A stretch of 64,000 nucleotides of DNA. Source: a virus. Its lineage: Duplodnaviria; Caudoviricetes. The stretch is taken from positions 1 to 64,000 of IMG/VR virus record IMGVR_UViG_3300050151_000071; one strand, 5' to 3'. Positions 719 to 59,064 of this stretch are shown piece after piece (positions within the stretch are counted from its first letter, which is position 1; every line of letters begins with the position of its first letter). Position numbers and translations under genes: made by a program. The notes under the pieces were generated by a model, which ran no database searches, was not told where the DNA came from, and saw only the letters and a list, made by a program, of their open reading frames with translations.

Positions 719-747
719 ATAATCTACAATATTGATCCGAAAATCAA
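719..747 (-). promoter_or_regulatory. sigma70-type early promoter
   Basis: TTGATT-N17-GATTAT; the same motif recurs throughout the window. Confidence 0.55.
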
Positions 748-1082
748 CGGTGTAAATTCAAAACTTTTACAGTTTGTTGTTGCATGACACCTTGAGGAGA
801 AATCGTATGGAAATTTCCTTTACCATCATGGTAAACAACTTGGAGCTTACTCACTCCACCATTATTTATATCTGTTAGATGTCTTTGTGCATCGTTCCAG
901 TGTCGGAACTCACCATGTCTAACAGCCACACGGTTAATAACCGTATTGTAAATGTGATAACCTTTGCCTAGTGTCTTAGGCGGCTTTGGTGTAGCATAAC
1001 CAACGAATGGATTAGTGTCCAACCCAACAAAGTTCGACTTAACTCTTAACTCCGTTAGGAACTGCTTGAATGACTTGATCAT
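744..1082 (-). CDS. putative internal head protein with CTS-like leader
   Basis: N-terminus MIKSFKQFLTE resembles the T4 capsid-targeting sequence MKTYQEFIAE; coupled to the upstream gene by TAATG. Confidence 0.65.
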   Translation of the reverse strand: MIKSFKQFLTELRVKSNFVGLDTNPFVGYATPKPPKTLGKGYHIYNTVINRVAVRHGEFRHWNDAQRHLTDINNGGVSKLQVVYHDGKGNFHTISPQGVMQQQTVKVLNLHR

Positions 1083-1519
1083 TAGCTGCTCTTTGGCTCG
1101 TAGCTGATATCGTATCCATCTCTACGATTACCACCATTACTAGAGAAACCGTGTTTCCCATACCAAGACTTTAACTGGCTGCTGTCGGCAATCTTACCAG
1201 AACGGTTATCCATATAAGCTTTAGCAACACCACTAATTGATACGCCGTGCTTATCAGCTAAAGAAGTAAGGTGCTTTAAGGCAGCTGTACCAGCGCCACT
1301 TTTAGGTTCGAATGAGTGAATATCGTGGAGGTGAATTCCGTCTCCATGTGGTGATACATGCACTGATGCATTACCAATCAACTTCTCATTGTGGTTAAAT
1401 GGATGTTGGTGAGATGTCTTACCGAGCTCATCCATGAACCCAGCAACACCTGGATGCGTTAACCTGGAGCCCAACTTAATTACAGTGTTTTCTTTGATGA
1501 ATCGTTTGAATGTTTTCAT
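1082..1519 (-). CDS. GNAT-fold acetyltransferase-like protein with CTS-like leader
   Basis: MKTFKRFIKE leader; acetyl-CoA-binding-like motif PKSGAGTAALKHL..LADKHG and C-terminal LKSWYGKHGF. Confidence 0.6.
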   Translation of the reverse strand: MKTFKRFIKENTVIKLGSRLTHPGVAGFMDELGKTSHQHPFNHNEKLIGNASVHVSPHGDGIHLHDIHSFEPKSGAGTAALKHLTSLADKHGVSISGVAKAYMDNRSGKIADSSQLKSWYGKHGFSSNGGNRRDGYDISYEPKSS

Positions 1520-6523: not shown

Positions 6524-6551
6524 AATACCTCCACTCTTTGAAGGTATTTAG
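6524..6551 (-). promoter_or_regulatory. late promoter plus RBS-sequestering hairpin
   Basis: CTAAATA at 6551-6545; AATACCT/AGGTATT stem overlaps the GGAGG RBS. Confidence 0.7.
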
Positions 6552-6601: not shown

Positions 6602-6678
6602 TGGTACCCGAGGAGGGATTCGAACCCCCGCATGCCAGGATGTAAACCTGGAGCCTTAAACCACTTGGCGACTCGGGC
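6602..6678 (-). tRNA. trnV: tRNA-Val(UAC)
   Basis: Cloverleaf with CCAGG-TT TAC AT-CCTGG arm and ACCA end. Confidence 0.95.
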
Positions 6679-6847: not shown

Positions 6848-7288
6848 TTAGATTTTATCGTTAGTCCAATGTGGTGTTCTGATGTCGTCTGGATGCTCCA
6901 TAACATGAGCATTGCCACGGAATGATGACATTATAGTGTGACGTTGGTATCCACCAATTTGGTCAGTCTTTTTATTCACTCGAATATGAACATCACCGTC
7001 ACTGTAGTGATCTGCACCTCGACCTTCAGTATGCGTTAATCCAGCATCAAGCAAGTTCTTTTTAACTTGGTCTTTATCGTTGTAATGGACCTCTAAGACA
7101 TGTCGGTGAGTCTTGTGGAGTATATCTTGACCATCGGAAGGCTTAACGTTCAGGCCTTCGGTAGCTTTAGTAACAACACCTACAGCACGAGCAAATGCTT
7201 CATGCTTTTCAGGCAATGACAATGACTCAGTTAGAGTCTTATTGATTGCCGCAAAGAGACCTTTGTTGTTACCGATGTTATCAACCAT
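6848..7288 (-). CDS. leader-family protein 7 (putative internal protein)
   Basis: MVDNIGNNKGLFAAINKTLTE leader; His-rich body. Confidence 0.8.
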   Translation of the reverse strand: MVDNIGNNKGLFAAINKTLTESLSLPEKHEAFARAVGVVTKATEGLNVKPSDGQDILHKTHRHVLEVHYNDKDQVKKNLLDAGLTHTEGRGADHYSDGDVHIRVNKKTDQIGGYQRHTIMSSFRGNAHVMEHPDDIRTPHWTNDKI

Positions 7289-7291
7289 TGA

Positions 7292-7759
7292 TTAATCTCT
7301 ACCATACACGTGACTATTGTCGGTATCGTCTTGAGATTCATCATCCACAGCTTGCTCGTGACGCTTCACAGACGCAGCTTTATGCTTAGCAAAGTCTTTA
7401 CCATGATCATAGAGTGAATCTGTTTCAGATACCTTTCTGCTTAGCTTCATAGCTTCGTTGTGGTGCTCTGTAGCTCTTGCGTAGCTCTCATCGGCTCCAT
7501 CATAGTGTTTGTTATTTTCTTGGTTATGGCCCACATCATTATGATAGTGATACTGATCAAGGTGATATCGAATTTCACTATGTTCTGGAGATTCGTTACG
7601 ACGGCGGGCAGCGGCTTCGCTTCTGTCAGCTGGGGGCGCGTTGGGGCCTTCTGCTGAGTAATGCTTTTCACCGAATGCTTCACCAGAATTGTATGTTTCG
7701 CTGATTGTTTTACCAATAGCTGCAAACAAGCCTTTGTTATTGCCGATGTTATTAATCAT
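7292..7759 (-). CDS. leader-family protein 6
   Basis: MINNIGNNKGLFAAIGKTISE leader. Confidence 0.8.
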   Translation of the reverse strand: MINNIGNNKGLFAAIGKTISETYNSGEAFGEKHYSAEGPNAPPADRSEAAARRRNESPEHSEIRYHLDQYHYHNDVGHNQENNKHYDGADESYARATEHHNEAMKLSRKVSETDSLYDHGKDFAKHKAASVKRHEQAVDDESQDDTDNSHVYGRD

Positions 7760-8130
7760 TAGTAACTCTTCGCTTGGTTAATATACTCTTGAATATGAGC
7801 GTGAATCTGCTCTCTGGATGACTTCACCATTCCCTTAAAATCGCGGTCGTGGTTATACGTTGGATTTGCAGCTTCATGAGCTTTACTATGTTCTTGAGCT
7901 TTTCTCAAGTGGTGTAAGGCTGTGTCATTTGCTAGATCAGCGGCGACTTCGTTTTTAGCTGCTTGATGGCCAACCATGTCCATTGTATGAATGTGGTAGT
8001 TGTGCAATGCGGTATTCATTAGCTCATGGGCTAATCCCAAGCTTTCAGATACTACTTCAATTGTCTCGGTAACTAAAGTTTTACCAATAGCTGCAAACAA
8101 GCCTTTGTTATTGCCGATGTTATTAATCAT
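7759..8130 (-). CDS. leader-family protein 5
   Basis: MINNIGNNKGLFAAIGKTLVTE leader; TAATG coupling. Confidence 0.8.
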   Translation of the reverse strand: MINNIGNNKGLFAAIGKTLVTETIEVVSESLGLAHELMNTALHNYHIHTMDMVGHQAAKNEVAADLANDTALHHLRKAQEHSKAHEAANPTYNHDRDFKGMVKSSREQIHAHIQEYINQAKSY

Positions 8131-8735
8131 TACCAGCGCTCCTGCTTCATGTGATCTTCTAGTTCCGACTTAAAGACACTATGTGAATGCTCATCAAATG
8201 CTTTACGGTCGGCAAATTCGTGATCCGGATTTTGCTTCGCGAAGGTAGCATGTGCTGTGTCTAAATGTGAGCTCAATTTAGCTACATGGTCCTTCATTTG
8301 CTTACCCAAGCTATACGAATGTAGTGGTGCAGCATCATTGATTGCACTAGCATGCTTCCATTGGTGAACACTGTGCGCTAAGTCCAACAGAGAATCTGTT
8401 GTGGGGTGAGCTACTGTATCTTTATGAGGATTACGGTTATAATGATCAGCAGCAGCTAGAGCAGCTCCACCACTAACAGCAACGTTACGTGCAACTACAC
8501 GACCACTTTCACGATGCTTAACGTTGTAATAACCATGCTCAGAATCATAGTCAGCATGATAAGGAGCAGCAGACCTTGCAGCAGCTTCGCTCTTATCTGC
8601 CGGAGGCGGAATACCAGCCGCTGAATCATCATGGCTGTAGTGTGAGCCGAATGCTTCGCCAGATTTATAGGTTTCGGTTAGAGTCTTACCAATGGCTCCG
8701 AAGAGACCTTTGTTATTGCCGATGTTATCGATCAT
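8130..8735 (-). CDS. leader-family protein 4
   Basis: MIDNIGNNKGLFGAIGKTLTE leader. Confidence 0.8.
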   Translation of the reverse strand: MIDNIGNNKGLFGAIGKTLTETYKSGEAFGSHYSHDDSAAGIPPPADKSEAAARSAAPYHADYDSEHGYYNVKHRESGRVVARNVAVSGGAALAAADHYNRNPHKDTVAHPTTDSLLDLAHSVHQWKHASAINDAAPLHSYSLGKQMKDHVAKLSSHLDTAHATFAKQNPDHEFADRKAFDEHSHSVFKSELEDHMKQERW

Positions 8736-9543
8736 TGTAATGTTCCTTAGGATCTACGTGGCTAATCTTCCAGCCGTCTACAGCATGATCTTCAAGCTTA
8801 CCTTCATGGGGACTTCTCCAACCATGACCTGCAACTGTGCCTGCTAGTTGAGTCTTACCATCTCTTTTGAATTCATGTACAGACGCTGTACAGCAAGGGG
8901 AAATAGCAATACGTCCCGTAGCTTCATGAGCTTCGAACGGTGCTTCTTTTGTCCGATAGAAGTGAGGATCGTTTACACTAGTCTTCAGATCGTTACCACG
9001 ATCTATACGTTGACCATTGTTATATTGATGTGCATCTTGCAAAGCACCCCAACGTTCTCGGGTTCCCATTGACATGACGCGACCAGAAGAATGAACAACG
9101 TGATGATAGCCAGATTTGTGATCTGTCTGAACGTCATAGTGTTTGCCACCATTTTGAGCAGGGTCAAATGGTTTTGGTTCAAACTGTTCTACAATAGGGG
9201 AGATTGTCTTATTAATTGCAGTAAATAACCCTCTATCACGCTTAGATTCATTTACTGGTTTTTTAACCCTTAGACCTGGACCATTCTCAGTATATGCCTT
9301 CGCAGTATCGTGAGCATCTTCTGCATCATCGGTATGGTAATCAGCTTTTGTTTGATGCTCACCTTTTTCGTTGTAGAACTTCACACGATGTTCGCCCCAT
9401 TCGGTGTCTTTGTAGACCTTTGCTGAGCGACCACTTTCGTGGGTATGCGTTTTTAAGAGACGCAGAGAAGAACGTTCTTCGGTGAGTGTTTTTGTAATAG
9501 CAGCCAACAGGCTCGCATCGAATTCAGGAATGTTGCTTTTCAT
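8725..9543 (-). CDS. leader-family protein with two leader-like segments
   Basis: Start reassigned to 9543 (TAATG overlap); SLLAAITKTLTEE at the N-terminus and internal RGLFTAINKTISPIVE. Confidence 0.75.
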   Translation of the reverse strand: MKSNIPEFDASLLAAITKTLTEERSSLRLLKTHTHESGRSAKVYKDTEWGEHRVKFYNEKGEHQTKADYHTDDAEDAHDTAKAYTENGPGLRVKKPVNESKRDRGLFTAINKTISPIVEQFEPKPFDPAQNGGKHYDVQTDHKSGYHHVVHSSGRVMSMGTRERWGALQDAHQYNNGQRIDRGNDLKTSVNDPHFYRTKEAPFEAHEATGRIAISPCCTASVHEFKRDGKTQLAGTVAGHGWRSPHEGKLEDHAVDGWKISHVDPKEHYNDR

Positions 9544-9956
9544 TAGTTGAAGCTCTTTGTCTGATAACGCTTGTGCCAATCTTCAAGATCATTGTGGTGG
9601 CCATCATCAGCAATATCAGCATGCGATTCGAGGCCGTAGTTACACTTTCCACTAGCTACGATTTCGGCAGCTTGTTTCATGTGGTGTTCTTTTGCTTTGG
9701 TCAATGCATCAACTATAGCACTATGGTGTTCATCAGCTGTTCCTGTATTGTCAATAAGCGACAAAGCGGCATGATACCCCTTAGCACTATGTAAATGTCC
9801 AACGACATTCATATCATGATCATTTGGATCAAGGTCTTCTGGGTGTGAGGTTGCATCTGATTCAGATACTACCTTCACCTCAAGCTTTGCCGTAGGAGTT
9901 AGAGTCTTATTGATGGCCCCAAAGAGACCTTTATTATTACCAATGCTGTCGATCAT
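9543..9956 (-). CDS. leader-family protein 1
   Basis: MIDSIGNNKGLFGAINKTLT leader; first gene after the ATAAATA late-like element at 9995-9989. Confidence 0.8.
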   Translation of the reverse strand: MIDSIGNNKGLFGAINKTLTPTAKLEVKVVSESDATSHPEDLDPNDHDMNVVGHLHSAKGYHAALSLIDNTGTADEHHSAIVDALTKAKEHHMKQAAEIVASGKCNYGLESHADIADDGHHNDLEDWHKRYQTKSFN

Positions 9957-10007
9957 GTTAGTCCCTTATCGAAGGTTGCTTTATACCTTATTTATCAATA
10001 AGGAAGT

Positions 10008-10082
10008 TGGTAGTCCCTAGTGGGCTCGAACCACTGTCCTCTTCCGTGTCGAGGAAGCGCTCTACCGCTGAGCTAAGGGACT
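10008..10082 (-). tRNA. trnV: tRNA-Val(GAC)
   Basis: AGTCCCT/AGGGACT acceptor, CTTCC-TC GAC AC-GGAAG arm (C33), ACCA end. Confidence 0.9.
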
Positions 10083-10166: not shown

Positions 10167-10718
10167 TTAGATGATATCTTCAACACGAATCGAGATCGGT
10201 TGATACACAACCTTCTTCGGGCCCAGAATCAAGAAGGCATTGGTAGGAGACTTACGAGCCAGCTCGGTTGCGTGAGCTTCTGCGTCAGCCAGAGTTTCCT
10301 TAGCTCCAACAAAACTACCATGAGTCTTGTTCCAAACGACGAAGATGTTCTTATCTTTTAGATCGGACATTTTAATAGTTCCTTGTTCATAATCTGCGAG
10401 GTTACCAGGATCTTGCCCAGCGGCTAATAAGCCAACGATAGTGTTGTATTGTACGCCCGTTAACAAGTGTACCTCAAGGTTCTTGTAGTATTGAGTGTAC
10501 TGATATTCGCTTTTAAAATCCTTCTTGCGGAACTCAACGTTGTCCGGAGAAGGTTCATTGTTGCTGAAACGAACAGCAACAAATTGTCGAGCCTTAACAT
10601 CAGAAGTATGACGTCGATAGGCATCAACATAACTTTGACCAGTAATCAGAAAGGCAACTTTATAGGTTGTAGTTTTTAGCGTATTCACAGTACGCCAGAT
10701 ACCTTCACGGTACTTCAT
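10167..10718 (-). CDS. hypothetical protein
   Basis: 183-aa ORF with AAAGGA RBS. Confidence 0.75.
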   Translation of the reverse strand: MKYREGIWRTVNTLKTTTYKVAFLITGQSYVDAYRRHTSDVKARQFVAVRFSNNEPSPDNVEFRKKDFKSEYQYTQYYKNLEVHLLTGVQYNTIVGLLAAGQDPGNLADYEQGTIKMSDLKDKNIFVVWNKTHGSFVGAKETLADAEAHATELARKSPTNAFLILGPKKVVYQPISIRVEDII

Positions 10719-13341: not shown

Positions 13342-14217
13342 TTACGAGACGAACATTCCACACGAGGCTTTAACATCGAAGCCTACTCGGGGTACAATTC
13401 GGCTATTTGGGTTCTGAAAGGCTTTGTTCAAGTAGTCAAACGCTTCTTGAAGTACTTCTTCAGATGGTTCACAACCTTGAGCTGGAGAATATGGATTATA
13501 CCGTACTAGATTGAACTTAACGTTAAGTCCTCGACTAGTAACAGCATCCACGATTTCATCGAGTGTACCAAAATCATCATTCTGGTCTTCTATGAACGAC
13601 CAGTGTAGTGCAATCTCATTACCAGTTATTACTTGATATTCAGCTAGCTTATCCAAAGCTTTTGCAGGATCCATTGCCTTAGGTAGCCAACGCTTTCTGA
13701 ACTCTGGATCCAGACTGTACAAGCTGTAATACAGTTGTGTGTCTTTTTCGTGCCCAATGATTTTATGAAGCTTTCTGTGCTCCATCTCGTGTGGCATAAT
13801 AGTGCTGATATTGAACTTCTGCTCATGCACACCATATATTATGGCTATGTTACGGAGATAACTCTTTAGAGAGAACCAAGGGCGAGTCTTGTATATCACT
13901 TCGTTCGCTAGCGGTTCGCCGCGAGCCATGAAGTTAAAGTTAACTCGTTTAGCAGGGTTACCCAGCTGATGGTAATGTTTAAACACCAGATTAGCTTGTT
14001 CAGCGTATTCATCGATGGATGCTGGCTTCATGGTTGTTTGCTTGGTCTGTGTTAAGTGACAGAATCTACAAGCCTTATTACAACCGGTGTGACTACTCAG
14101 ATAGCAAATGAAGTAGTCTTCTTCCCTGCGAACGTATCTCGATTCAAATGCACCACCATCTGGTGTACGTTTGACAAAGTTTACGCTCGCGTCTTCTTTA
14201 GAATATAATGTTTCCAT
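13342..14217 (-). CDS. RlmN/Cfr-like radical SAM RNA methyltransferase
   Basis: SSHTGCNKACRFC (CxxxCxxC), FMARGEPLAN, SLYS and C-terminal ASCG. Confidence 0.85.
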   Translation of the reverse strand: METLYSKEDASVNFVKRTPDGGAFESRYVRREEDYFICYLSSHTGCNKACRFCHLTQTKQTTMKPASIDEYAEQANLVFKHYHQLGNPAKRVNFNFMARGEPLANEVIYKTRPWFSLKSYLRNIAIIYGVHEQKFNISTIMPHEMEHRKLHKIIGHEKDTQLYYSLYSLDPEFRKRWLPKAMDPAKALDKLAEYQVITGNEIALHWSFIEDQNDDFGTLDEIVDAVTSRGLNVKFNLVRYNPYSPAQGCEPSEEVLQEAFDYLNKAFQNPNSRIVPRVGFDVKASCGMFVS

Positions 14218-27754: not shown

Positions 27755-27835
27755 ACTAAGTGTGCTGATTTTGTATTTAGCCACATCTGGCCGCAACAAA
27801 CGAATTATCCGCATTAATGGAAAAGAAAGCAACAG

Positions 27836-28419: not shown

Positions 28420-28665
28420 TCAACCATTATTTATTTGACGCAAGATTGTGTCCATTGGAGTCGTTGTTCTAATCCTTTCAATGAAGGGGTTGTATCCGTC
28501 ACTACCTTCTAAAGTAACTTCAGATATCCTGGCTTTGAAGCTGGTACCATCAGCAGCAGTTACAACAGCAAAGTCTTCCGTCTCTGCAATGTTACGGAGG
28601 CTATAAGCTGGAACAGCAGTGCGTGTTCCATTTTCTTTTAGTAGTGATATAAATCGTTCAGCCAT
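28420..28665 (-). CDS. hypothetical protein
   Basis: Tightly packed ORF. Confidence 0.7.
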   Translation of the reverse strand: MAERFISLLKENGTRTAVPAYSLRNIAETEDFAVVTAADGTSFKARISEVTLEGSDGYNPFIERIRTTTPMDTILRQINNG

Positions 28666-31139: not shown

Positions 31140-31607
31140 TTAGTCCTTTAGATCGGTTACGAACTCATCTGCCAGGACTATAGGGAAAGTAGGGAGTGGA
31201 TACTTCGACACATCAGGAGCCTCGGGTAGAATTCCCGTTAAGGTGATGTGCGGAAGATAGTCATCAAAGTCGTACGTTGCACCCAGCTTTTGGGATTCTG
31301 CAAAGCGTTTATGGAGCTCAGGGCTTTCAACGCGCAGTACCAGGAGGCAACTTTTGCTTTTTTGTGTGTTGAACACTTGATATGAAACAGGCTCAACAAC
31401 GATGTTACGACCCACGTCCGGCGTATAATCAACCGGTGCTCTTGAATACATTGTAGTAATGTGGTAGTCGTTCGGCAGAACTGGATTAGGAATACCAAGT
31501 TCTTTAACAAAAGTCATTAGTTGTTGTGCACTATGGTCTGTTAAATGGTATGCTGAATACGTGCCATTTGTATTAGCTTCTTCTATGAATGTTTTAAACG
31601 GTGTCAT
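31140..31607 (-). CDS. Acb1 / T4 gp57B-like 2H phosphoesterase
   Basis: YHITTMYSR and GATYDFDDYLPHITL (two HxT motifs); probable start MTPFKTFIEE. Confidence 0.82.
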   Translation of the reverse strand: MTPFKTFIEEANTNGTYSAYHLTDHSAQQLMTFVKELGIPNPVLPNDYHITTMYSRAPVDYTPDVGRNIVVEPVSYQVFNTQKSKSCLLVLRVESPELHKRFAESQKLGATYDFDDYLPHITLTGILPEAPDVSKYPLPTFPIVLADEFVTDLKD

Positions 31608-45729: not shown

Positions 45730-48657
45730 CTAGATCGTGTCGTCTGAGTGTTTTAGTTTTTCAAGAGCATTTGTGTGGTTTGCTTTTCTTACTAAAGTAT
45801 CTGAGTGTGCTCTTAACTTATCTCGGTTAGATGGTACGTGTGGCTCTACGCTCCAGATATGAACTTTACTTTTAATGTTGTTTGTTCTAATACTACCATC
45901 TTCATCGCGCAAAACGTGATGGTCACTTCTAGTTACAACCTTATGTCCAGTCATCTTCCAATGTTGACCTTTATCCATTAGGTATTCGTGTTCACCATCA
46001 CACTTAGAGATGTTGTCAACGTATGTGCCCTTATCGTATCCCTTTGGTAGATGGAAATGCAACACATGATGTTCTGTAATATGTTGTGGACGGCCAGCAG
46101 TTGTTGCAGTTCTTTGTTCTTTTTCTTCTCTAGCGAATACCGCACCTTGTCTTGGGTTTAAACTAGTAGACGTAAAGGCTGGCATGTGAATAACGCCACC
46201 GTTCTTTTTAAAATGTTCTCCTGGGTGGAAGCCACCAATACCACTATACACGTGTGCTTCGTGGTCTAACGGTTTTGCAAAATGAGCTATGGCTTCAGAT
46301 AATGCGTTAACCTTTTCATGATCAAATTTGTTGGGCGAACCATGAATTAAAGCGGTGTTTATTCTACCAGACATCTCTCCAGTATATTGTTTTAATGCAT
46401 GGGCGTGATCGTGTGTTTTAGGAGATGTGGGATCAACCCACAAGTGTTCTTTAGATGGTCCAAACGCAGACATCTTTTGATGATGATCATTTGAGTGGTC
46501 AACATTAAACTCATTTTTAGTAGCGTTTAGATGTTCAACTTTACTACTTCTAGCGTGTGGTAGGTCTACAGTTCTAAGACTTGTATCATTAAACCCACGG
46601 ACCTTATAGCTTGAATCTCTAAACATCTTTGGATCGTGGAAGTACGCTTCGGTTAGTTTTTGATACGGTCGCATAGACCATATGTGTCTATTTCCAATTT
46701 TCTGATGTCCAACGTGTTCAAATGTTTGGTTCTTATCAATAACCATTTCATGCTCGTGCTCAATGTGCGAAGCTGGAGCGATGTATCTACATTTGTTGTA
46801 TCCCTTAGGTAGTTCAAAGTGTAGGATATGAGTCTCTTTGTGAGCGTTGCTTGCACCAGGGTTAGCGTGCATACCAGCAACTTCAGGATTAAGAGATGCA
46901 CAGATATACGTTGCTGTTTTGAAATGATTCTTGTGGTGTATTAACGACCCAGGACTTACTTCTCCGAAGCTCGAATAAACGTGGTGCGTATGCTCAAGTG
47001 GCTTTGCTGTACTCATCAAATGATCCATATGATTTGTTACAGCTTGAAAGTCAGGATGCATTGGAAGGTTGTTAATCAAATGGTGAGTTATTGTTGCGCT
47101 TGATTCACTCCATGTTCCAATGTGAGTATGATGATCCGGATGATCACAGTGATGCAAAGCTGCCAAATGGTTATGCTCAGCTTCATGGTGCTCGGATGAA
47201 TCAGGGGCATCCCAATCTAGACCTAACGGATCTTTCTCTGTATTAAAGTGGGGGTTATTAGGATCGTGAGAGTGTGCCATTTCTTTTAATGTATCTTCAT
47301 GAGGTACTACAGACCAAATATGCACATGGTGCTCAACGTTTGTACCATCAGTTTTCTTTTGATTCTCTTTAACAACTGTATGTTGCTTCAACTTCCAAGA
47401 TTGTCCTCTGTCGAGCAAATATTCTTTCTCATATCCAACATGACTTGCTCCATGCACATACGCTCCCTTGTTGAAACCTTCTGGGAGATGAAAATGAAGT
47501 ACATGTCGATGAGTTTGCTTGTTATCACCAGGAGTAAAGTGGTGTTGTGAAAACCCTTTAGCTATACTAGGATCTATAGAAGTGGATGTAAAAGCTGGTA
47601 AATGAATTTTACCACCTTCTCGTTTGAAGTGATCCGTAGGATCAAAGTGTCCTAAGCCACTGTAAACATGCGCCTCATGATCAAGTGGTTTTGAGTAATG
47701 TTGAATCGCTCTGGAAATTCTATCAGTTTGTTTAGTAACGAATGATGAATCATGGCTTCCGTTATGGCCACTAATCAAAACCATATTAATAGGGTACGAT
47801 TCGTCTGTATATTCATTTAAAGTTTTAGCATGATGGTGGTGTTGTGAGTTTATATTTCTGAAATCATTACCAACTTCTTTAAACGCTGCATGCATACGGT
47901 CGTGGTGTGATTCTGCTCGTATAGCTGTTGATGCAGCAGATACGGATGTCAAGTCCTCTACATCATGGTTGAATAACTCGTTCAACTTAGCATCGTGTGG
48001 CTTAACATGCCATATCGTACGCTTAGTTGTAGGAGTCATTTGGTGTTCTGTTTTACCAGTCACCTTCCACTTACTGTTTGGACGCAATAAGAACTCACGT
48101 TCTTCAGGGAACTTTGAGGTTCCTCCGATGTACAAACCGTGTTGTGATCCTGCTGGAAGCTCAAAGTGGATTATGTGGTGGTCGTGTTTAGCAGAATCAG
48201 ACGTAGCGTTTGCGTGCATAGCAGCGATACCTGGATGTAAGCTAGCACTTGTGTGAGCTGGAGTATGGAACACACCATGCTCACCAACTGCAGAACTAGG
48301 ATCAAAATGACCTGTTGATGAATAAACATGGTGAGTCTTTTGTAAAGGTGCAGCCGAATCATACATCGTATGCAGATTCTTATGCAAGGACTGTTGCATA
48401 ATCGTAGGAGATTCACCTCTAACTAGACGACTGTTTAAATCTCCCGACTCAACTCCAGTGTATCTTAGAATTGATAGTGGATGCTTTCCAACAGCATCTT
48501 TGTGTAGCTGTCTTAGTTCTCCATGCTCTTGAGCAATTTCGTGAGGTTGTTTCACGTGTTGAAAGAATGCAGTCTCTGTATCTTGCAGATGATCCTTCAT
48601 AGCGGCATTATGCTGATAAGCTTCGTGCAAATGGTCTAAGAAGGGTTTGATTGGCAT
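45730..48657 (-). CDS. Alt-like ADP-ribosyltransferase with four tandem VIP2-type domains
   Basis: Four repeats of YT..S..IN..L / HVYS / (F)TSTS / HFxLP.G / ExE; late promoter at 48690-48684; His-rich. Confidence 0.85.
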   Translation of the reverse strand: MPIKPFLDHLHEAYQHNAAMKDHLQDTETAFFQHVKQPHEIAQEHGELRQLHKDAVGKHPLSILRYTGVESGDLNSRLVRGESPTIMQQSLHKNLHTMYDSAAPLQKTHHVYSSTGHFDPSSAVGEHGVFHTPAHTSASLHPGIAAMHANATSDSAKHDHHIIHFELPAGSQHGLYIGGTSKFPEEREFLLRPNSKWKVTGKTEHQMTPTTKRTIWHVKPHDAKLNELFNHDVEDLTSVSAASTAIRAESHHDRMHAAFKEVGNDFRNINSQHHHHAKTLNEYTDESYPINMVLISGHNGSHDSSFVTKQTDRISRAIQHYSKPLDHEAHVYSGLGHFDPTDHFKREGGKIHLPAFTSTSIDPSIAKGFSQHHFTPGDNKQTHRHVLHFHLPEGFNKGAYVHGASHVGYEKEYLLDRGQSWKLKQHTVVKENQKKTDGTNVEHHVHIWSVVPHEDTLKEMAHSHDPNNPHFNTEKDPLGLDWDAPDSSEHHEAEHNHLAALHHCDHPDHHTHIGTWSESSATITHHLINNLPMHPDFQAVTNHMDHLMSTAKPLEHTHHVYSSFGEVSPGSLIHHKNHFKTATYICASLNPEVAGMHANPGASNAHKETHILHFELPKGYNKCRYIAPASHIEHEHEMVIDKNQTFEHVGHQKIGNRHIWSMRPYQKLTEAYFHDPKMFRDSSYKVRGFNDTSLRTVDLPHARSSKVEHLNATKNEFNVDHSNDHHQKMSAFGPSKEHLWVDPTSPKTHDHAHALKQYTGEMSGRINTALIHGSPNKFDHEKVNALSEAIAHFAKPLDHEAHVYSGIGGFHPGEHFKKNGGVIHMPAFTSTSLNPRQGAVFAREEKEQRTATTAGRPQHITEHHVLHFHLPKGYDKGTYVDNISKCDGEHEYLMDKGQHWKMTGHKVVTRSDHHVLRDEDGSIRTNNIKSKVHIWSVEPHVPSNRDKLRAHSDTLVRKANHTNALEKLKHSDDTI

Positions 48658-48698
48658 GATACACTCACAGTTTTGTTATCAGGTATTTAGATATGAAA

Positions 48699-56914: not shown

Positions 56915-56974
56915 ATATTGATCTCCCAGATAGGATTGTTTTTCTAATCCTATTTAGTGTCAAAGTGATTGCCA

Positions 56975-58269: not shown

Positions 58270-59064
58270 TTATTTAGGAATTGTCCAGCCGCGTTTTACG
58301 TTTGGATCTTTATTTGCTTTGGTGAAGTGGTCTTTATCTACTAGTTTGACAAACAGAGGTCCACTCTGGATTACAAATCCTTCGTGCCCCGGAACCACCG
58401 TTCTGCTAGTGAACTCTGTTGCCTCGTAAGTGATAAAAGCTGAAACCCGATCCATTGCGATCTCGTTAAGAGCTTTGATCATATCAGCTTTCCACGCCAT
58501 TACATCGTCCAATGATGCATTGTGTGTACCTCGAAGAAGGGGTAGAACTTTCTCTTCAATGTCCACGTTAGGTTGCCAAATCATAGAACAGGTATATGGA
58601 GCCGTTCCTTGAAGTTGCGTGTGGACAGCTAAGCCCATTACGAATGGAGTGTTGTGTCTTCTGTAGAAGTCCTTCAAGATATAAGATACGATGTTTGGTT
58701 GGAACGGTTTTGTTGCTGCCATCACCCCATCGAACATAACATCTGCAAAATAGATGTTTCCGTGCTCAGGTGGGAAATATGAGATGACATTAAACAGCTT
58801 AACCATAATGTCAATCAATTGTTGATTGCGACCAGCTAAGGTTGTTTGGATATCTTCAACGCTGTAGAACAACTGAGGAGTCTTGTTGAAGTATCCCTTA
58901 GTAGCAACAAAGATACCATTATCGTTATGGCCGAAGACAACAGCAGGGGATCCATCATATTTGATAGAGATCTTTGCTGTCCCTGACAGAATGTCTTCCA
59001 TCAAAATTTGAATAGGTCGAATGCCATGTTTGTGGTACAGGTCTTCTATGTGAACAATGCCCAT
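58270..59064 (-). CDS. conserved protein with ligase-like KxDG and EG motifs
   Basis: KYDGSPAVVFG, FVATKG.FNK, HEGFV and KLVDK..F. Confidence 0.7.
   Translation of the reverse strand: MGIVHIEDLYHKHGIRPIQILMEDILSGTAKISIKYDGSPAVVFGHNDNGIFVATKGYFNKTPQLFYSVEDIQTTLAGRNQQLIDIMVKLFNVISYFPPEHGNIYFADVMFDGVMAATKPFQPNIVSYILKDFYRRHNTPFVMGLAVHTQLQGTAPYTCSMIWQPNVDIEEKVLPLLRGTHNASLDDVMAWKADMIKALNEIAMDRVSAFITYEATEFTSRTVVPGHEGFVIQSGPLFVKLVDKDHFTKANKDPNVKRGWTIPK

Follow-up and report, generated by a model that had tools for sequence, protein, structure and literature searches.

In T-even phages it is textbook knowledge that diverse cargo proteins share nothing but a targeting leader that is cut off by the prohead protease gp21 (PMC3012670, PMC9026906). 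The T4 protease cleaves after L/I-x-E, T4 propeptides being 7-65 residues long, and in the T4 tag the residues at positions 4 and 7 serve targeting and those at 8 and 10 serve processing; T4 Alt is also packaged in the head and cut by gp21 (PMC9026906). According to the T4 record, the internal proteins IPII and IPIII start with M-K-T-Y-Q-E-F-I-A-E and IPI starts with M-K-T-F-K-E-F, the IPI leader having 19 residues and being cut after I-T-E. At the polymorphic ip1 locus of T-even phages diverse cargo is found of which only the targeting leader is conserved, with recombination as the driving force, as Repoila et al. (1994) are summarised in PMC3012670. In the giant phages phiKZ, 201phi2-1 and SPN3US, many head-internal proteins are likewise processed after Glu by a gp21-type protease, and several cut sites per propeptide are possible (PMC9026906, PMC5694885). 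The locus described here is an array of six histidine-rich genes with a common 21-residue leader, situated in positions 1 to 64,000 of the IMG/VR virus record IMGVR_UViG_3300050151_000071 (the window in what follows), and its leader is probably a packaging signal of this general kind with a sequence of its own.

The array comprises six co-oriented minus-strand genes, here called A to F, which occupy positions 6848-9956 almost without spacing between two tRNA-Val genes (Table 1). It looks like one translationally coupled operon: genes A and B, C and D, and D and E are joined by TAATG, genes B and C overlap by 11 nt, and a 3-nt spacer separates genes E and F; an earlier note on this DNA had described most junctions as TAATG or overlapping. 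The length of gene B, 272 amino acids, matches the gene call in a public collection, and its start is most likely the ATG in the TAATG junction, so that its first degenerate leader copy would be N-terminal as well. Identical copies of five of the six array proteins are found on one to three other contigs.

The leader has 21 residues and occurs in seven copies on the six genes, with the core G-L-F-x-A-I-x-K-T-(L/I)-(T/S)-E. Five open reading frames (ORFs) open with M-(I/V)-(D/N)-(N/S)-I-G-N-N-K-G-L-F-(A/G)-A-I-(G/N)-K-T, and gene B carries two degenerate copies, both of which have lost the first ~9 residues and kept the core and the subsequent Glu motif; L-x-x-A-I-x-K-T is invariant across all seven. 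A leader profile scores 38-52 bits at the seven places in the array; neither the rest of the 75.9-kb record nor ~100 other phage loci contain a further match. Over the leader, the five full copies show a mean proportion of synonymous differences (pS) of 0.67 and of non-synonymous differences (pN) of 0.09, and the pairwise pS is near saturation (0.54-1.1) with the exception of the D/E pair. The combination of low pN with near-saturated pS indicates that the leader has been kept by selection as a peptide and not as DNA, and hence that it is under purifying selection.

In five of the seven copies the leader closes with (L/I)-(T/S)-E at one fixed position, and the remaining two are followed by V-S-E or I-V-E within 5-11 residues. 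In gene A the first aliphatic-x-Glu past the leader core is V-S-E at residues 30-32, the internal copy of gene B retains the core G-L-F-T-A-I-N-K-T, is preceded by V-N-E and ends with I-V-E, and the leader of gene D is followed by V-T-E and V-S-E. As in the T4-type internal-protein system, the putative propeptide ends at the gp21 consensus L/I-x-E and is common to the N-termini of small proteins that are otherwise largely unrelated. The leader core is amphipathic with a hydrophobic moment of ~0.4, like that of the T4 tag, and AlphaFold predicts it as a helix with low to moderate confidence in the models of gene C and of the first module of gene B. Among the bodies without leader, only those of genes C and E are significantly alike (55% identity over their first 41 residues, E 3e-7), while the second body of gene B and that of gene C are marginally so (E 0.025). 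Over 56 nt (7707-7762 and 8078-8133) the leader DNA of genes D and E is identical, and the other copies differ. Gene E is therefore a mosaic, in which leader DNA as in gene D is followed by 41 residues that resemble gene C, which suggests that recombination or conversion has taken place inside the leader. The earlier note had described five ORFs with a shared leader and a sixth with two degenerate copies, most of them continuing to a Glu, in front of largely unrelated, histidine-rich bodies, all of which is borne out. Its near-exact repetition of leader DNA is true of the D/E pair, the other copies having diverged almost to synonymous saturation, and its recombination-shuffled set agrees with the mosaic structure of gene E.

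The phage that carries the array is an uncultured soil phage and distant kin of T4. The window is part of a viral record of 75,922 bases, estimated by CheckV to be ~42% complete, and encodes UvsX-, Dda-, RnlA-, NrdA/B- and DnaB-like proteins, an Alt-like ADP-ribosyltransferase and a homologue of Acb1/57B; 13 tRNA genes and homing endonucleases are also encoded in the record. UvsX is ~50% identical to homologues from distant T4-superfamily phages. Judged by these homologies the phage is a member of the T4 superfamily, and it represents an isolated lineage, since the best identity of its UvsX to any viral contig is 58%. The array lies in a dispersed tRNA and homing-endonuclease region. In the T4 record, one co-oriented stretch runs from 57B and ipI through the tRNA cluster, a homing endonuclease and rnaC/rnaD to ipIII and ipII further along, with ipI adjoining the tRNA cluster and 57B. 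The position of the array recalls this arrangement, the genes in both phages lying away from the head genes and inside or close to the tRNA region.

Three other genes of the window start with the canonical T4-type tag, M-K-T-F-K-x-F-I-x-E, and match it at positions 4, 7, 8 and 10, one of them shifted by one residue (Table 1). Two are small, adjacent orphan genes with the tag pattern F-x-x-F-(I/L)-x-E and are likely the true internal-protein homologues of this phage. The third encodes a homologue of the anti-CBASS nuclease Acb1 (CBASS, cyclic oligonucleotide-based anti-phage signalling system). Relative to T4 57B, whose N-terminus resembles the start of IPI, this homologue has a five-residue insert, I-E-E-A-N, straight after the common F-K-x-F, which creates an I-x-E cut site, and Acb1 may in this phage be packaged in the head and delivered together with the phage DNA. 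A fourth gene that possibly has the tag starts at 28665 on the minus strand. With the canonical tag present on three genes, the phage very probably has a working T4-type loading system, and the leader of the array is, by its sequence, a second one different from that tag.

All array proteins are rich in histidine, at 7.4-9.8%, while in the 97 other ORFs the median is 2.3% and the 90th percentile 4.4% (Mann-Whitney p 3e-5), and all six are among the top ten in a ranking of 107 ORFs by histidine content. In this top ten the Alt homologue also appears, as does one of the pair of small genes with the canonical tag. A search of the literature turned up no account of histidine-rich internal proteins in phages. 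The Alt-like protein is the most histidine-rich of the record and contains about four repeats of the ADP-ribosyltransferase (ART) type; its gene has the heptamer CTAAATA 26 nt upstream.

Five of the six array proteins have no match in Pfam or PHROGs, and Pfam gives none at all; the sole PHROGs match is that of the first module of gene B, B1, to phrog_7884, which covers 58 of the 66 profile positions. An alignment of B1 with seven homologues has 19 invariant columns. The idea that all bodies are diverged copies of phrog_7884 found no support with hhalign, by which three of the other five bodies were tested. The earlier note had pointed to AlphaFold models of the bodies, and these turned out well for B1 (predicted local distance difference test, pLDDT, ~90) and poorly for gene C (pLDDT 56), which is modelled with a leader helix at residues 9-24 and a C-terminal helical bundle. 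A Foldseek search with the gene C model returned nothing below E 0.001, and an ESM Atlas search gave no query-normalised TM-score of 0.5 or more, scores above 0.5 appearing only upon normalisation to viral clusters of 73-83 amino acids with 53-76 aligned residues. For B1, the best Foldseek match, AcrF1 (E 0.23), is too weak to claim a common fold, and the match to an AP2 DNA-binding domain (VIA Z 6.9, root-mean-square deviation 2.9, 60 residues) stays below the shared-fold level.

Relatives of phrog_7884 were found at least 116 times in viral contigs, and 80 of these loci were kept. In 66 of them phrog_7884 forms the C-terminal part of a Gly/Lys/His-rich protein of 400-720 amino acids, which in one locus (L038) lies two genes past the major head protein; the other 65 share the head protein or a neighbouring gene with that locus. 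The members of this widespread low-complexity family (L038:4561-6366 and 65 similar loci within L035-L113) start with M-G-Q-F-K-P-M-V-K-M and may be head-internal or ejection proteins; the head protein of L038 is that of non-T4 phages. Four loci are T4-like head modules in which the domain gene is directly beside the gp21 gene, and they are diverse, as their proteases are 40-46% identical to that of L108. The gene order in L108 is ART, ART, tail tube, portal, a 253-aa protein, a 579-aa protein with phrog_7884, an 82-aa protein, prohead protease, scaffold and major head protein. In L102 and L107 the phrog_7884 protein immediately precedes the protease gene, and in L110 a gp22-type scaffold protein has the domain as its N-terminal part. 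These four proteins and that of L109 have an aliphatic-x-Glu motif (V-D-E, L-D-E, V-S-E, I-N-E and L-E-E) 1-2 residues before the first strand of the domain, and four of the five have another one after it. Gene B has the L-T-E of its leader five residues ahead of this first strand, and a V-N-E comes after the domain. Taken together, B1 appears to be a module which in T4-like phages belongs to the prohead core and lies between cut sites, and to which the array leader has here been added in front. That the leader is an add-on module is further indicated by phrog_7884 also existing as a free protein of 57-67 amino acids that lacks it. The multi-module proteins beside the prohead protease (L108:5506-7245, L102:425-1993 and L110:5770-7326) carry repeated (V/I)-D-E-G-type linkers and look like cleavable head-core polyproteins.

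The position of the cut motif, the selection on the leader, the histidine-rich composition, the homology of B1 and the kinship with T4 together lead to the reading favoured here: on balance, the leader probably serves as a propeptide by which cargo is directed to the prohead core and which a Glu-specific head protease of the T4 type then cuts off. The leader, a predicted amphipathic helix, would dock the nascent protein to the assembling prohead core, around which the capsid shell would close and enclose the array proteins. A T4-type Glu-specific prohead protease would then remove the leader at the closing aliphatic-x-Glu, the product of gene B being cut into two mature proteins, and the mature bodies would stay with the packaged DNA and probably exit with it at infection, as do IPI, IPII, IPIII and Alt of T4. 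Targeting, cleavage, retention in the virion, injection and activity in the host are all steps that we infer. The internal copy in gene B, which keeps the core and the Glu motif and has lost the extreme N-terminus, is as expected for an element of processing or targeting. As to whether the bodies act as injected effectors or as core fillers that are expelled, the B1 homologues with their place in the head core speak for a core function of the B1 module, and the variable, ip-like layout in a tRNA region speaks for cargo. The different capsid-targeting signal proposed in the earlier note is backed by indirect evidence (gp21 motif, T4 kinship, tRNA region and B1 homology); the note had missed that the canonical capsid-targeting sequence is present as well. 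Its anti-defence role for the bodies is a guess, as no array body matches any known anti-defence family. IPI* is an inhibitor of GmrSD, and unlike at the ip1 locus, with which the array shares diverse cargo behind a conserved leader and recombination as the driving force, no body resembles this protein, the structural matches of B1 being weak and non-specific.

Relatives of the array were sought widely. Megablast and tblastn of the array proteins against 50,697 deposited phages gave no match, a word-indexed search of 5.8 billion proteins returned the query itself only, and a profile of all seven modules found its own six proteins only among 1.84 billion protein representatives. Scanning for the leader-peptide pattern gave 47 pattern matches in viral contigs, of which none was confirmed, and five in metagenome contigs, all due to chance. 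The earlier note had looked to a hidden Markov model of the leader for variable cassette content among relatives; in the ~100 fetched loci it matched nothing outside the array, and no relative with the leader was found.

The favoured reading must be taken with caution, since several observations weigh against it. No relatives of the array occur in the collections searched. Prohead protease, scaffold and capsid genes are all missing from the 75.9-kb, ~42%-complete record, in which a search with PF03420 (Peptidase_S77, gp21-type) also gave no match; a gp21-type protease is to be expected in the phage, its presence and specificity being assumed from the kinship with the T4 superfamily. The canonical capsid-targeting sequence M-K-T-Y/F-Q/K-E-F-I-x-E, with aromatics at positions 4 and 7, is not found in the array leader and is already carried by other genes, so that the leader could serve another purpose. 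The aliphatic-x-Glu motif, a short one, is not depleted in the bodies (3 seen versus 4.4 expected; past the leader region it is absent from genes A and C and occurs once in gene E). With isoelectric points of 5.6-7.1, the array proteins are near-neutral to acidic, unlike the basic IPII and IPIII. Finally, the late-like ATAAATA that the earlier note had placed ahead of the array is indeed there, and with the preceding G it matches seven of the eight positions of the T4 late consensus TATAAATA, but it is not enriched in the window (8 seen versus 12 expected) and a late promoter is without statistical support; late transcription of the array is possible.

Some of these points would suit diverged tandem paralogues whose N-terminal helix acts in the infected cell, on a host or phage partner or on a membrane, with no capsid loading and with a coincidental Glu motif. 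The amphipathic leader core with its predicted helix, the canonical tag on other genes, the absence of head genes from the fragment and the lack of ATAAATA enrichment all fit such proteins. However, a membrane span or a Sec signal would call for a longer and less polar leader, and this explanation accounts neither for the fixed aliphatic-x-Glu boundary nor for the retention of the core at the internal site of gene B, the composition in common with the Alt-like protein or the homology of B1 to head modules, which makes it unlikely. A secretion or membrane signal as such is also unlikely, since the apolar stretch of the leader is only ~7 residues long and a basic N-region is missing.

A somewhat smaller chance is given to the array proteins being accessories of the prohead core or of assembly, like gp67 and gp68 of T4, which would give the core its shape or filling and fragments of which would mostly be expelled before DNA packaging and would have no role in the next host. 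In other T4-like phages phrog_7884 does lie between the genes for portal and protease, in the slot of gp67/gp68, and is in one case fused to the scaffold protein, and the array proteins are acidic to neutral. Yet six diverged, mostly unrelated bodies in a tRNA region, remote from head genes, are nearer to the variable ip genes, and few cut motifs lie inside the bodies, whereas cleavage breaks each T4 core protein up into several fragments (PMC9026906). The weakest alternative, a recognition sequence like those of ribosomally synthesised and post-translationally modified peptides with the radical-SAM gene at 13342-14217, 3.4 kb upstream of the array, as maturase, has next to no chance, since the enzyme is assigned by NCBIfam to the RlmN/Cfr-like RNA methyltransferases, sits among tRNA genes as would fit tRNA methylation, is separated from the array by three other genes and two tRNA genes and has its homologues in jumbo phages without an array-protein match (tblastn, deposited phages), and since no SPASM-type maturase lies beside the tagged genes, where this enzyme is the only nearby radical-SAM protein. 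The closest homologues of this minus-strand gene of the tRNA region, with 43-57% identity, come from jumbo phages of Caulobacter, Brevundimonas and Pseudomonas (phiKZ-like).

The locus resembles the T4 internal proteins in the size of the leader (21 residues versus 19 in IPI) and in its mosaic recombination. It differs from them in that the leader is unrelated to M-K-T-(Y/F)-(Q/K)-E-F and that a canonical tag coexists with it on other genes, in the joining of six genes with seven leader copies and a two-module fusion in one coupled operon, and in bodies that are histidine-rich and near-neutral rather than basic. In the giant phages the protease cuts at S/A/G-x-E and the cargo genes are not arranged as a tandem array with one leader, unlike in this locus. 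While the general principle is established, what is new here is, as far as sequence can tell, a leader without public relative, a six-gene operon with a natural fusion, the coexisting canonical tag and the histidine richness of the presumed cargo. A tentative and rather doubtful extension is that the phage uses two independent capsid-addressing codes, the ten-residue ancestral T4-type tag for Acb1 and the two small proteins and the 21-residue tag for the recombining histidine-rich operon, which would bind different core components and in this way set copy number, location or ejection order, while the histidine-rich bodies would be a pH- or metal-responsive protein class that travels with the DNA.

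Apart from the array, the heptamer CTAAATA appears to be the recurrent promoter-like motif of this phage. It occurs 16 times in the window versus 9.6 expected. Nearly all of these are coding-strand copies, the majority located 20-36 nt ahead of the start of a gene or 19-35 nt ahead of a tRNA gene, with minus-strand examples at 48684-48690, 56951-56957, 58271-58277, 6545-6551, 27774-27780 and 15796-15802. The gene at 10167-10718, which neighbours the array, has no relative in viral contigs.

Table 1. Features of the array, its flanks and the related genes of the window (all on the minus strand; aa, amino acids; His, histidine content).
Feature	Position	Strand	Remarks
tRNA-Val (GAC)	10008..10082	-	upstream flank of the array
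ATAAATA, T4-late-promoter-like heptamer	9989..9995	-	32 nt before the ATG of gene A; putative promoter
Gene A, 137 aa, His 9.5%	9543..9956	-	leader 9894-9956
Gene B, 272 aa, two modules	8725..9543	-	ATG at 9543-9541, in TAATG junction with gene A
Gene B, degenerate N-terminal leader	9478..9543	-	ends L-T-E; leader profile 38 bits
Gene B, body of module B1 (phrog_7884, small beta-sheet-plus-helix domain)	9289..9462	-	profile E 1.6e-18
Gene B, internal leader copy	9187..9258	-	residues 96-119; leader profile 41 bits
Gene C, 201 aa, His 9.5%	8130..8735	-	leader 8673-8735, ends L-T-E
Gene D, 123 aa, His 9.8%	7759..8130	-	leader 8068-8130
Gene E, 155 aa, His 8.4%	7292..7759	-	leader 7697-7759, ends I-S-E
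Gene F, 146 aa, His 8.2%	6848..7288	-	leader 7226-7288, ends L-T-E
tRNA-Val (TAC)	6602..6678	-	downstream flank of the array
Small gene, 145 aa, His 8.3%	1082..1519	-	starts M-K-T-F-K-R-F-I-K-E
Small gene, 112 aa, His 6.2%	744..1082	-	starts M-I-K-S-F-K-Q-F-L-T-E
Acb1 (anti-CBASS nuclease) homologue	31140..31607	-	PF23474 E 7e-32; starts M-T-P-F-K-T-F-I-E-E
Alt-like ADP-ribosyltransferase, 975 aa, His 12.6%	45730..48657	-	L-H-E at residues 10-12

Injected phage proteins act first in infection and include anti-defence factors. If the leader of the array is a second packaging tag, the addressing of head cargo in T4-like phages would not be bound to one conserved peptide; new tags could arise and coexist with the old one, and the search for injected phage proteins would be widened. 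Histidine richness and the presence of phrog_7884 beside gp21 are possible marks of head-internal cargo for which metagenomes can be screened. In addition, the tagged Acb1 homologue suggests that some phages may deliver an anti-CBASS nuclease ready-made with their DNA.

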